Below, one piece after another: positions 1-4,083 of a stretch of 4,083 nucleotides of DNA. A program made the translations under genes and the position numbers. The DNA is from a virus. Its lineage: Duplodnaviria; Heunggongvirae; Uroviricota; Caudoviricetes. The stretch lies in IMG/VR virus record IMGVR_UViG_2713896781_000018; one strand, given 5' to 3'. Position 1 is the first letter of the stretch; the number at the start of each line of letters is the position of its first letter. The notes beneath the pieces are model-generated. The model was not told the DNA's origin. It was given only the letters and a program-made list of their open reading frames with translations, and ran no database searches.

Positions 1-396
1 ACGGTGGAGGTGGATGAGGTTCCTGTTTACCGGCAGAAAAAATCAGAGCAGGAGGATAAACCCCGTCGCCGTGAGGTGGCTGCAATACCACAGCCGGACG
101 AAAAAAATCCGGAGATGCCTCCGCCCGCGGTGATATCTCATGGTATTGAATATATGGAGGATGGTCTTCCCGATCCGGTGAAAGCTATGGGGCAGATCCT
201 GGTGGAAAACCTGATAATTGACCCGAAACTGGCACTGGATGCGGCCTGGCGACTGGCGCAGTTCACACACCATAAAAAAGGCGATGCCGGTAAAAAATCG
301 GCAAAAGGTGATGCCGCGAAAAAAGCGGCTAACCGTTTTGCGGTGCCACCACCTCCCCGACTGGTGGTGAATAACCAGAATGAGGAAAGCGGATGA
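1..396 (+). CDS. Putative phage terminase small subunit, probably 5'-partial (frame open from base 1; first in-window start is GTG at 4)
   Basis: ORF in frame 1 ending at TGA 394-396, which overlaps the ATG (393-395) of the downstream terminase large subunit gene (ATGA coupling). Position directly upstream of terL is typical for terS. C-terminus is lysine-rich and basic (KKGDAGKKSAKGDAAKKAANRF) followed by PPPP. No HTH or other diagnostic motif recognised by eye, so the functional call rests mainly on synteny. Confidence 0.4.
   Translation, partial: TVEVDEVPVYRQKKSEQEDKPRRREVAAIPQPDEKNPEMPPPAVISHGIEYMEDGLPDPVKAMGQILVENLIIDPKLALDAAWRLAQFTHHKKGDAGKKSAKGDAAKKAANRFAVPPPPRLVVNNQNEESG
382..386 (+). 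promoter_or_regulatory. Shine-Dalgarno-like GAGGA upstream of the terminase large subunit start
   Basis: GAGGA at 382-386, 6 nt upstream of ATG 393; lies inside the 3' end of the upstream ORF, consistent with translational coupling. Confidence 0.4.
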
Positions 397-2494
397 TACC
401 TGTATGGAGCACGGCATGTCCGGACTGGGCAGAGCGCCTGAAAAAGGGGCTGTCGATTATTCCGGCTCCGATTTATCCGGACCAGGCTGCACATGCACTG
501 GCGATTTTTAAACAACTGCGGATTGTGGATGCACCGGGTAGCCCGACATTCGGGGAGTCCTGTGCACCGTGGGTGTTTGACCTGGTGGCGGCCCTGTTTG
601 GCTCCTACGATGCGCAGACCGGTGTTCGCCATATCAAGGAAGTGTTTATCCTTATCCCCAAGAAAAACAGTAAGTCCACGCTGGCCGCGGGGATCATGAT
701 GACGGCGCTGTTACTGAACTGGCGGCAGGCGGCGGGCTACACCATTCTGGCCCCGACCGTGGAGGTGGCGGCTAACGCCTTCAACCCTGCCAGGGATATG
801 GTACGACGGGACGATGATCTGGATGACCTCTGTCAGGTGCAGACACATATCCGGACCATCACCCATCGGGTGACGGACACCACCCTGAAGGTGGTGGCAG
901 CCGATCCGAATACGGTGTCCGGTATCAAGNNNNNNNNNNNNNNNNNNNNNNNNNNNNNNNNNNNNNNNNNNNNNNNNNNTTTATCCTTATCCCCAAGAAA
1001 AACTCGAAGTCCACGCTGGCCGCGGGGATCATGATGACTGCACTGTTACTGAACTGGCGGCAGGCGGCGGGTTACACGATTCTGGCCCCGACTGTGGAGG
1101 TGGCGGCCAACGCCTTCAACCCTGCCCGGGATATGGTACGACGTGACGATGATCTGGATGACCTCTGCCAGGTACAGACCCATATCCGGACCATCACCCA
1201 CCGGGTGACGGACACCACCCTGAAGGTGGTGGCAGCCGATCCGAATACGGTGTCCGGTATCAAGNNNNNNNNNNNNNNNNNNNNNNNNNNNNNNNNNNNN
1301 NNNNNNNNNNNNNNGGACACCACCCTGAAGGTGGTGGCAGCCGATCCGAATACGGTGTCCGGTATCAAGTCCGTGGGTACGCTGATTGATGAGTTGTGGC
1401 TGTTTGGCAAGCAGTGCAAGGCGGAGGACATGTTACGTGAAGCCATAGGCGGCCTTGCCTCCCGCCCGGAAGGGTTTGTGGTGTATACGACCACCCAGTC
1501 GAATGAACCGCCCGCCGGGGTGTTCAGACAGAAACTGCAGTACGCCCGGGATGTGCGCGACGGCAAAATTCATGATCCGCACTTTCTGCCGGTGATATTT
1601 GAACACCCTCCTGAAATGGTGGAAAGCGGGGCTAACCTGCTGATGGAAAACCTCGCCATGGTCAATCCGAATCTCGGCTATTCAGTGGATGAGGCCTTTC
1701 TGTACCGGGAGTACCGTAAAGCCCGGGAAGCCGGTGAAGAGACATTCCGGGGGTTCATGTCAAAACACGCCAATGTGGAAATTGGTCTTGCCCTGCGCTC
1801 TGACCGCTGGGCGGGGGCTGATTTCTGGGAAGAGCAGGGCCGTTGTATCAGCCTGGACGATATCCTGCGTCGTGCTGATGTGGTGACGGTGGGGATTGAC
1901 GGCGGGGGCCTGGATGATCTGCTGGGAATGTACGTGACTGGCCGTGACAGGGAAACCCGCGAATGGCTGGGCTGGGGCCATGCCTGGGTGCATGAAACCG
2001 CGGTGGTCAGACGGAAGAGTGAGGCATCCCGGTTTCAGGATTTTGTGGCCTGTGGAGACATGACGATTGTCCGTCGGGTCGGGGATGACACGGCGGAAGT
2101 GGCGGAGTATGTGCGTCGTATTCATGAGGCTGAGTTACTGGATCATATCGGTATTGACCCGTCAGGTGTGGGGCAGATTCTGGATTCACTGGCGGAAGCC
2201 GGGATCCCCGATGAGAGTGTGGTGGGGATAAGCCAGGGCTGGAAACTGGGCGGGGCCATCAAAACCACCGAGCGCAAACTGGCTGAGGGAGTGCTGGTGC
2301 ATGGTGGTCAGCCACTGATGGCCTGGTGCGTTGGCAATGCCCGGGTGGAGCCTAAAGGTAACGCCATTCTTATCACCAAACAGGCCAGCGGACGGGGAAA
2401 AATTGACCCTCTGATGGCGCTCTTCAATGCGGTGTCCCTGATGTCCCTGAATCCGGAACCGAAAAAGAAAGCGTATGAGGTTTTTTTCATATAA
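393..2494 (+). CDS. terL: Phage terminase large subunit (Terminase_1 / HK97-like family), reading frame artificially broken by two 50-N gaps and a duplicated block
   Basis: Translation has a Walker-A-like stretch ([14 protein letters not shown]) in the N-terminal ATPase part and a [10 protein letters not shown] stretch typical of the start of the terminase nuclease domain; stop TAA at 2492-2494. The ORF track splits it into 393..1034 (frame 0) and 1031..2494 (frame 2) only because each N run is 50 nt (not a multiple of 3). Removing one copy of the 285-bp block and the 55-bp overlap gives about 1662 nt (about 553 aa), a normal terL size. Confidence 0.8.
645..929 (+). repeat. Copy 1 of a 285-bp block inside terL (abuts first N gap)
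   Basis: Same length and register as 980-1264. About 15 nucleotide differences in 13 codons, every one synonymous (e.g. AGT/TCG Ser, AGG/CGG Arg, CAT/CAC His); encoded peptide [12 protein letters not shown]...VSGIK is identical in both copies. Confidence 0.85.
930..979. other. Scaffold gap (50 N)
   Basis: Run of exactly 50 N characters. Confidence 0.95.
980..1264 (+). repeat. Copy 2 of the 285-bp terL block (synonymous-variant allele), between the two N gaps
   Basis: Aligns base-for-base with 645-929 apart from synonymous third-position (and one Ser-codon family) differences. Confidence 0.85.
1265..1314. other. Scaffold gap (50 N)
   Basis: Run of exactly 50 N characters. Confidence 0.95.
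1315..1369 (+). repeat. 55-bp exact repeat of the last 55 bp of both 285-bp blocks (contig-end overlap)
   Basis: GGACACCACCCTGAAGGTGGTGGCAGCCGATCCGAATACGGTGTCCGGTATCAAG occurs at 875-929, 1210-1264 and 1315-1369; the third copy runs straight into unique terL sequence. Confidence 0.85.
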
Positions 2495-2518
2495 CCCTGC
2501 TCACCCTGTAACCATCAT

Positions 2519-2540
2519 GAACCGCTGCGGCGGTTTTTTT
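2519..2540 (+). terminator. Candidate weak intrinsic terminator / attenuator hairpin with T-tract between terL and the protease-capsid ORF
   Basis: ACCGC (2521-2525) can pair with GCGGT (2530-2534) around a 4-nt loop (TGCG), extendable by flanking A-T / G-T pairs, followed directly by a run of seven T (2534-2540). Stem is short, so strength is doubtful. Confidence 0.3.
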
Positions 2541-2546
2541 ATTTTC

Positions 2547-2552
2547 AGGAGG
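2547..2552 (+). promoter_or_regulatory. Shine-Dalgarno AGGAGG for the protease-capsid ORF
   Basis: Perfect AGGAGG at 2547-2552, 5 nt upstream of GTG 2558. The ATG at 2556 is followed immediately by an in-frame TGA, so GTG 2558 is the usable start. Confidence 0.6.
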
Positions 2553-2557
2553 CTGAT

Positions 2558-4083
2558 GTGACTCTTAAACGGGCCTGTTCCCTGCTGACGGTGAAATCCT
2601 TCAGTGAGGATGAACGGGTGATCACCGGGATTGCGTCAACGCCTTCTCCGGATCGGGATGGTGACATCCTGGAGCCGGAGGGGGCGGAGTTTGGCAGTAC
2701 GATCCCGTTTCTCTGGCAGCATGACCATTCCCGCCCTGTAGGCCAGTGTACGGTGCGTCGGGTCAGGGAAGGGCTGGAAATCACGGCAATGCTGGTGAAG
2801 CCGGAGCCGGGGATGCCCTCCCAGATGGCAGCCCGGCTGGATGAGGCCTGGGCTGCCATTAAGACCGGGCTGGTCAGGGGGCTTTCTGTGGGCTTCCGGC
2901 CCCATGAATACACTTATCTGGACGGAGGCGGACTGCATTTTCTGCGCTGGGAGCTGATGGAGGTGTCTGCCGTCACCGTGCCCGCGAATGCGGAATGCAC
3001 CATCCGGACCATTAAATATTTCGACCGCCCGTTTTCTGCCGCGTCCGGCAACCGGAGACCGGTGGTGAAAATCGCATCTTCTGCCGGCGCTTCGGCACAG
3101 TCAATAACCTCTTTTCATAAGGAAAAGTCAGCAATGAATACTGGTGAACAGATTAAAAGTTTTGAAAACAAGCGTGCGGCGCTGGCAGCCTCCCTTGAGG
3201 AGATCATGAACAAAGCCGCAGAGGAAGGCCGCACACTGGATGTGGAAGAGGAAGAGCACTACGACAACACCGCAGCGGAAATCCGTCAGGTGGATGCGCA
3301 CCTGAAGCGTCTGCGTGAACTGGAAGCCGGTAAGGCCGCCACGGCACAGCCGGTGAAACAGGCCGGTAACGGGAATGTGGCCACGGTGGCTTCAGCGCCG
3401 GTGATCCGTGTTGAGCAGAAACTGGAGAAGGGGATTGGTTTCGCCCGCTTTGCCAAATCACTGGCCGCGGCTAAAGGTGTCCGCTCTGAAGCCCTGGAAG
3501 TGGCCCGTCGTCAGTATCCGGATGACAGCCGTCTGCATCATGTCCTGAAATCGGCGGTGGGGGCAGGGACCACCACGGACCCACAGTGGGCAGGCAGCCT
3601 GTCTGAATATCAGGAATATGCGCAGGACTTTATTGATTACCTGCGTCCGCAGACCATTATCGGGCGATTTGGTCAGGGCGGGATCCCTGCACTTCGTCTG
3701 GTGCCGTTCAATATCCGCGAGCATGCCCAGGTGTCCGGTGGTGCTGCCGGCTGGGTGGGGGAGGGTAAGGCCAGACCCCTGACGAAGTTTGATTTTGAGT
3801 CCATCACCTTCAGTCATGCGAAGGTGTCGGCCATTGCGGTACTGACGGAAGAGCTGATCCGCTTTTCCAGTCCGGCAGCTGATGCACTGGTCCGTAATGC
3901 GCTGGCAGAAGCGGTGGTGGCGCGTCTGGACACAGACTTTGTGGACCCGAAAAAAGCTGCAGTGGCAGATGTCTCCCCGGCGTCCATCACCCATGATGTG
4001 AAGGGCACGGCATCAACCGGTAACCCGGATGCGGATGCCGAGGCCGCGTTTGGCCAGTTTGTGACGGCAAATCTGCAGCCCAC
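2558..4083 (+). CDS. Prohead protease / major capsid protein fusion (HK97-family prohead serine protease domain N-terminal, HK97-fold major capsid protein C-terminal); 3'-partial, continues beyond window
   Basis: Translated codon by codon from GTG 2558 to base 4083 in frame 2 with no stop; absent from the ORF track, apparently because it has no stop inside the window. N-terminal ~190 aa (MTLKRACSLLTVKSFSEDERVITGIASTPSPDRDGDILEPEGAEF...LWQHDHSRPVG...GLSVGF...) resembles the HK97 prohead protease family with candidate His and Ser motifs. From the in-frame Met at 3134 (MNTGEQIKSFENKRAALAASLEEIMNKAAEEGRTLDVEEEEHYDNTAAEIRQVDAHLKRLRELEAGKA...) it resembles the charged, helical N-terminal delta/scaffolding region of HK97-type capsid proteins, then a capsid body (...AAGWVGEGKARPLTKFDFESITFSHAKVSAIAVLTEELI...). 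Confidence 0.8.
   Translation, partial: MTLKRACSLLTVKSFSEDERVITGIASTPSPDRDGDILEPEGAEFGSTIPFLWQHDHSRPVGQCTVRRVREGLEITAMLVKPEPGMPSQMAARLDEAWAAIKTGLVRGLSVGFRPHEYTYLDGGGLHFLRWELMEVSAVTVPANAECTIRTIKYFDRPFSAASGNRRPVVKIASSAGASAQSITSFHKEKSAMNTGEQIKSFENKRAALAASLEEIMNKAAEEGRTLDVEEEEHYDNTAAEIRQVDAHLKRLRELEAGKAATAQPVKQAGNGNVATVASAPVIRVEQKLEKGIGFARFAKSLAAAKGVRSEALEVARRQYPDDSRLHHVLKSAVGAGTTTDPQWAGSLSEYQEYAQDFIDYLRPQTIIGRFGQGGIPALRLVPFNIREHAQVSGGAAGWVGEGKARPLTKFDFESITFSHAKVSAIAVLTEELIRFSSPAADALVRNALAEAVVARLDTDFVDPKKAAVADVSPASITHDVKGTASTGNPDADAEAAFGQFVTANLQP
3119..3136 (+). promoter_or_regulatory. Internal Shine-Dalgarno-like AAGGA plus in-frame ATG (3134) at the protease/capsid domain boundary; possible independent start for the capsid protein
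   Basis: CATAAGGAAAAGTCAGCAATG: AAGGA at 3119-3123, 10 nt before ATG 3134, which is in frame with the fusion ORF and begins the capsid-like sequence. An out-of-frame TAA sits at 3118-3120 just before the SD, looking like a standard stop-RBS-start gene junction. Confidence 0.35.

Follow-up and report, generated by a model that had tools for sequence, protein, structure and literature searches.

A partly doubled terL gene in an Escherichia coli prophage scaffold, very probably a product of short-read assembly

The window, by which we mean the whole 4083-nt stretch of DNA analysed here (position 1 is its first letter), shows 285 nt of a terL gene twice. We consider it very probable that this duplication is an artefact of short-read assembly and scaffolding and not a genomic feature. 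In the window we recognise the terS/terL/protease-capsid module of an EHEC-type lambdoid prophage of E. coli, and the gene underlying the doubled block is a known EHEC prophage terminase, with no new biology.

Layout of the scaffold and identity of its genes

Two runs of exactly 50 N each, placeholder gaps at 930-979 and 1265-1314, set apart three pieces: contig 1 (1-929, from the start of the window to the first N run), contig 2 (980-1264) and contig 3 (1315-4083). The two versions of the doubled block, each 285 nt long and corresponding to terL codons 85-179, are copy A (645-929), which closes contig 1, and copy B (980-1264), which is contig 2. An exact 55-mer, GGACACC...GGTATCAAG, is found three times, at 875-929, 1210-1264 and 1315-1369. 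Read literally, the gene is out of frame, as the spacing from copy A to copy B is 335 nt (335 mod 3 = 2), and the result is two ORFs, 393-1034 and 1031-2494. When 930-1369 is removed, a single ORF of 1662 nt encoding 553 amino acids is obtained. Collapsed coordinates used below equal window coordinates up to 929 and window coordinates minus 440 beyond that point.

All genes are on the plus strand. Contig 1 opens with the 3' 396 nt of terS (1-396), which in finished genomes is a 564-nt terminase small subunit gene ending at this point; its product (4-396) gave no Pfam match at E <= 0.001, despite the RefSeq name terminase small subunit. The terS stop codon TGA overlaps the terL start codon (ATGA, 393-396), and terL codons 1-179 follow at 393-929, codons 85-179 being in their allele A version. 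Contig 3 carries terL codons 180-553 with the stop codon (1370-2494) and, downstream, the 5' 1526 nt of a fused prohead protease/major capsid ORF (2558-4083). The latter runs to the end of the window without a stop codon and contains Pfam Peptidase_S78 and Phage_capsid in the same ORF. In finished genomes this gene is a single CDS of 1938-1941 nt annotated as "phage major capsid protein". Both parts of terL were delimited from the ORF listing and from Pfam matches (TerL_ATPase in the first, TerL_nuclease in the second). The collapsed TerL protein matched PF03354 (TerL_ATPase; E = 2e-11, residues 63-224) and PF20441 (TerL_nuclease; E = 3e-9, residues 276-535), both exceeding the gathering cut-offs, and is identical over 553 of 553 residues to RefSeq WP_025404317.1, the annotated TerL of O145 strains RM9872 (locus L001) and RM11626-C1 (L085). 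Its position between terS upstream and the fused protease-capsid gene downstream is the one seen in relatives.

Two features of the surrounding region deserve mention on their own. A consensus scan detected a terminator-like hairpin followed by a T run (2519-2546, plus strand; GAACCGC-TGCG-GCGGTTT) between the terL stop at 2494 and the protease-capsid start at 2558, and thus inside what is expected to be a single late operon. Further downstream, the portal gene, located 3' of the capsid gene about 2.2 kb past the terL stop, is annotated as a "frameshifted" pseudogene that overlaps a 222-nt ORF in all six finished genomes (L001-L004, L085, L086; at L085, for example, 6393-8769). Such recurrence suggests a programmed frameshift or a problem of the annotation model, rather than decay.

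Two natural alleles of the doubled block

Copies A and B differ at 15 nucleotides in 13 codons, and all differences are silent, so that both copies encode the same 95-residue peptide. The changes comprise AGT/TCG (Ser) at 669-671, AGG/CGG (Arg) at 792 and eleven third-position substitutions. The first-pass annotation had described two copies, at 645-929 and 980-1264, with an identical peptide, about 15 silent differences and flanking 50-N gaps, and this description was exact in every detail. Nei-Gojobori counting assigns the 285-nt block approximately 73 synonymous sites and 212 non-synonymous ones, with a pS of 0.17. One random change would be silent with a probability of about 0.26, and the probability that 12 independent single-site changes are all silent is about 8e-8. 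Consequently, both versions have evolved under purifying selection, as the first-pass annotation had proposed in calling them functional alleles. The selection seen in 13 of 13 changed codons is consistent with a functional terL.

One of the variant codons behaves differently from the rest. The serine codon in the Walker-A-like motif PKKNSKST of TerL (669-671 and 1004-1006) is AGT, AGC or TCG among near-identical prophages (L005-L079), and thus switches between serine codon families at a local divergence of only about 5%. Its state does not follow that of the other 12 variant codons; L008, for example, has TCG in an otherwise allele A block. This independent segregation points to recombination and not to stepwise mutation. 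Synthetic recoding was also considered, because AGT to TCG and AGG to CGG recall the design rules of the 57-codon genome, and was rejected: the leucine codon TTA is kept in both copies, no scheme is apparent in the remaining 11 changes, and natural genomes commonly carry either allele.

The module was found in 1253 of 5426 finished E. coli genomes, at a median of 2 and a maximum of 7 places per genome. Stx1a-converting phages and the PPompW prophages of E. coli O145:H28 match the window at 98-99.5% DNA identity, and the best matches of contig 3 are O145 strains (99.9%). Hundreds of finished genomes have allele A at 100% identity, and hundreds have allele B; in five of these (RM9872, 95-3192, RM12581, RM13514 and E110019) both are located at distant loci of one chromosome. 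In RM9872 (NZ_CP028379), B is at 1,405,776 and A at 1,592,878 (1.406 and 1.593 Mb), whereas the respective positions in E110019 are 1,056,157 and 2,632,065. Among approximately 40 close copies, taken from finished loci and IMG/VR contigs, A and B are two common haplotypes of a recombining set, and mixed haplotypes of the 285-nt block are seen in L008, L009, L034 and L068.

In these relatives terL is a single gene. It is annotated as one 1662-nt gene, between the 564-nt terS and the protease-capsid gene, at all six finished loci (at L004 as a pseudogene), and a 553-codon match is present in 29 of 29 full-length IMG/VR relatives at >=96% identity. No terL duplication was found in the six finished loci or in about 70 IMG/VR loci. 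Eight of 80 IMG/VR contigs end within terL, which indicates that draft assemblies often break at this gene. These results bear out two suggestions of the first-pass annotation, namely that two related prophages were the source of the alleles, which have exact matches at separate loci within single finished chromosomes, and that the true gene is one copy of about 553 amino acids. As a separate observation, the terL of the A-carrying prophage of E110019 (L004; NZ_CP035751.1, 2630940-2632601) has a stop at codon 358 and is the annotated pseudogene mentioned above, which implies that some co-resident copies of the module are decaying.

Contig ends and the length of the assembler overlap

We compared the contig ends with sites at which natural copies that share the adjacent vertex are dimorphic. 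In collapsed coordinates, such sites are 0, 644, 866, 938 and 3644. Site 0, immediately before contig 1, is G or A among natural copies that have bases 1-63 in common; site 644, before contig 2, is G or T; and site 3644 (window 4084), after contig 3, is C or T among copies with a common last 63 nt. The last difference between A and B is at 866, and the two copies are identical over 867-929. Contigs 1 and 2 end at 929 = 866 + 63, contig 3 begins at 875 = 938 - 63, and 938 (window 1378) proved to be a common T/G dimorphism. In a scan of vertex lengths from 21 to 127, only 63 accounts for all six contig ends. The third copy of the 55-mer (1315-1369) is thus where contig 3 overlaps the ends of contigs 1 and 2, and its length is twice 63 minus the 71-nt stretch (867-937) that separates variant site 866 from 938. 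What the triple repeat reflects is overlapping contig ends and not the k-mer size; the vertex overlap is very probably 63 nt.

Simulated graphs gave the same boundaries. With two RM9872 prophages and 63-nt vertices, the allele unitigs end at 929, a shared 71-nt unitig spans 867-937 and the downstream unitigs start at 875. When a third prophage with T at 644 upstream of B (L003) was added, the unitig 645-929 was identical to window 980-1264 over its exact 285 nt, and a unitig boundary at position 1 was also obtained. Copy B is therefore recovered as a single de Bruijn unitig carrying the second terL allele. The three-copy simulation did not regenerate the right-hand boundary of contig 3, for which the population dimorphism at 3644 is the only support. 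The start of contig 2 at 645 requires a third source copy, that is, two B-type copies unlike at 644, and polymorphism at 644 is seen across genomes (L001 has G, L003 has T). About 12% of sites are polymorphic in our sample, and some ends could adjoin a variable site by chance; chance is nevertheless an unlikely explanation, because all ends fit jointly and the variant predicted at 938 was confirmed.

A more familiar source of a 55-nt overlap would be an assembler run at k = 55, which is a common default (SPAdes, for example), and each of the three contig ends carries a repeat of exactly 55 nt. Two edges leading into the same 55-mer vertex would need different bases just before it, though, and A and B are identical over 867-929. 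Sites 874 and 930 are monomorphic in approximately 40 natural copies, which leaves the ends at 929, 929 and 875 unexplained, and the same RM9872 graph built with 55-nt vertices ends its allele unitigs at 921 and starts the downstream ones at 883. Since path-extending assemblers can append a shared edge to both contigs, we keep this origin of the overlap as an improbable one. The first-pass annotation had read the 55-bp repeat at 1315-1369 as a de Bruijn contig-end overlap; the overlap itself stands but does not imply a k of 55, as only a 63-nt vertex fits all ends. Its suggestion that a scaffolder had laid terL variants in series agrees well with contig ends that fall on de Bruijn vertex boundaries.

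The most probable origin of the window in short-read assembly is as follows. The source would be a draft assembly of an E. coli genome that is most similar to STEC O145 and has several lambdoid prophages with nearly identical terS-terL-head modules. When placed in a de Bruijn graph of 63-nt overlaps, these prophages would merge over long shared stretches and split at each difference. Contigs 1 and 2 would stop 63 nt past the last difference at 866, at the vertex where A and B come together again, and contig 3 would begin 63 nt ahead of the next variant site, 938. The shared 71-nt unitig would be too short for retention, and its loss would leave all three pieces with 55 nt in common. The scaffolder would then have seen links to contig 3 from A as well as from B and set the two in series, with gaps of the minimum size, 50 N. 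This scheme predicts that the prophage with allele A left a contig that starts with window 875-929 followed by TCCGTGGG and then G (the GGGGACACTGA type), and that other contigs end in ...AAGGAAGTT or ...AAGGAAGTG, overlapping the first 63 nt of copy B. Both ends of the window adjoin dimorphic sites, and for this reason the 4083-nt window is probably a whole scaffold made only of repeat-graph fragments. ABySS at k = 64, which gives 63-nt overlaps, may have been the assembler of this scaffold. The default minimum gap of abyss-scaffold is 50. In the literature searched we found neither an O145 draft assembled with ABySS nor a statement of this default. We infer the number of prophages, the order of contigs and the assembler, and rely on relatives for the copy number of the module and the linkage of the pieces in the source.

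A and B might also have come from different cells, either from a mixture of two strains or from a lysogen accompanied by phage of another type, free or induced; the first-pass annotation had named a mixed population as an option. Graph and scaffold would then look the same, and the window itself does not discriminate between the two origins. We judge a mixture very unlikely, as it is unnecessary: finished single chromosomes routinely hold both alleles, and the module reaches seven copies. Furthermore, three or more distinguishable copies are needed to produce the ends at 1, 645 and 4083, as a poly-lysogenic EHEC genome would supply.

We consider a genuine partial tandem duplication of terL codons 85-179 more improbable still. 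It would have arisen by unequal recombination between two co-resident prophages and, as part of the same reading, would have left a frameshifted terL pseudogene with real sequence under the 50-N runs. Co-resident lambdoid prophages do recombine, recombinant haplotypes of the block are known (L008, L009, L068), and terL pseudogenes occur, as at L004. If true, the duplication would be a frozen recombination intermediate of inter-prophage exchange inside an essential packaging gene. Against it stand the two gaps of exactly 50 N, and the junctions present in the window consist of N runs only. The third piece restarts on the same 55 nt that close both copies, all piece ends fall on vertex boundaries of one overlap length, and prophages with an ordinary single copy suffice to regenerate copy B as a unitig. 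The absence of the arrangement from the six finished and approximately 70 IMG/VR loci also speaks against it and, with the other points, for assembly as its source.

Linkage of the pieces and relation to known systems

Contig 3 carries 938T and 941G. Among natural copies, 938T is found in 7 of 7 B carriers and in none of 11 A carriers, all 11 of which have 938G, and the best match of contig 3 directly adjoins allele B in finished O145 genomes. The closest finished prophage (L085, O145 RM11626-C1) differs from the version composed of window 1-644, copy B and 1370-4083 by 3 mismatches in 3643 nt, and from the version with copy A by 18. Judging from these matches, copy B is most probably the version present in the real prophage gene, followed by contig 3. 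Allele A most probably comes from another prophage, whose downstream sequence would be on another contig. Deleting copy B is thus probably a wrong collapse that joins parts of two different prophages, while the encoded protein is unchanged whichever copy is kept.

Contig 1 is identical, with 0 mismatches, to a combination of L001[1-668] and L002[420-929] from one O145 chromosome, and the best single natural sequence has 2 mismatches. It may therefore be a chimeric path across a 249-nt stretch shared by two RM9872 prophages; natural U-A combinations also exist (L004 and L086). A chimeric origin of contig 3 from the two RM9872 copies was considered as well and was rejected, as a crossover interval of 30 nt falls short of the required 63.

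Calls of an ORF, a frameshift, a pseudogene or a "duplication" across 645-1369 are artefacts, and gene-calling programs would return terL as two fragments. The warning of the first-pass annotation against such calls is justified by the contrast between the two literal ORFs and the single 553-residue one. The problem extends further: SNP, allele and prophage-typing calls, as well as linkage, are unreliable across the whole scaffold, because even deletion of copy B probably joins two prophages. On the other hand, contig ends together with population polymorphism can recover the overlap length of an assembler, and they can reveal a short scaffold that was built wholly from repeat-graph fragments.

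The properties of the assembly are in line with published descriptions. ABySS proceeds through unitig, contig (paired-end merging) and scaffold stages, with branching defined by k-1 overlaps and N runs introduced "for unresolved repeats" (PMC5411771), and short reads have been reported to fail on paralogous prophage genes of STEC (PMC5320650). The window closely resembles the repeat-induced breaks and serial "bubble" contigs of short-read assemblies of poly-lysogenic STEC and EHEC strains. These involve the same near-identical prophages and fixed-length N placeholders, and their contigs, as here, end one overlap length before or after a variant site. The difference is that in the present case the alleles are distinguished by silent changes only, which gives the scaffold its tidy look of a "synonymous duplication".

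At the level of the gene, the window matches the TerL of EHEC lambdoid prophages (WP_025404317.1), including those of Stx1a-converting phages and the PPompW prophages of O145:H28. All 553 of 553 residues are the same, Stx1a phage Stx1_14744 matches at 99.5% identity in DNA, and both the TerL_ATPase and TerL_nuclease domains and the order terS, terL, fused protease-capsid gene are shared. Only the layout differs from that of EHEC prophage terL, the gene being split and partly doubled by assembly. Finally, the two alleles fit the mosaic exchange known among co-resident lambdoid prophages: A and B act as recombination blocks, A-left/B-right mixtures are found, and the flanks re-assort. Such exchange accounts for two alleles per genome, but not for their tandem arrangement here.
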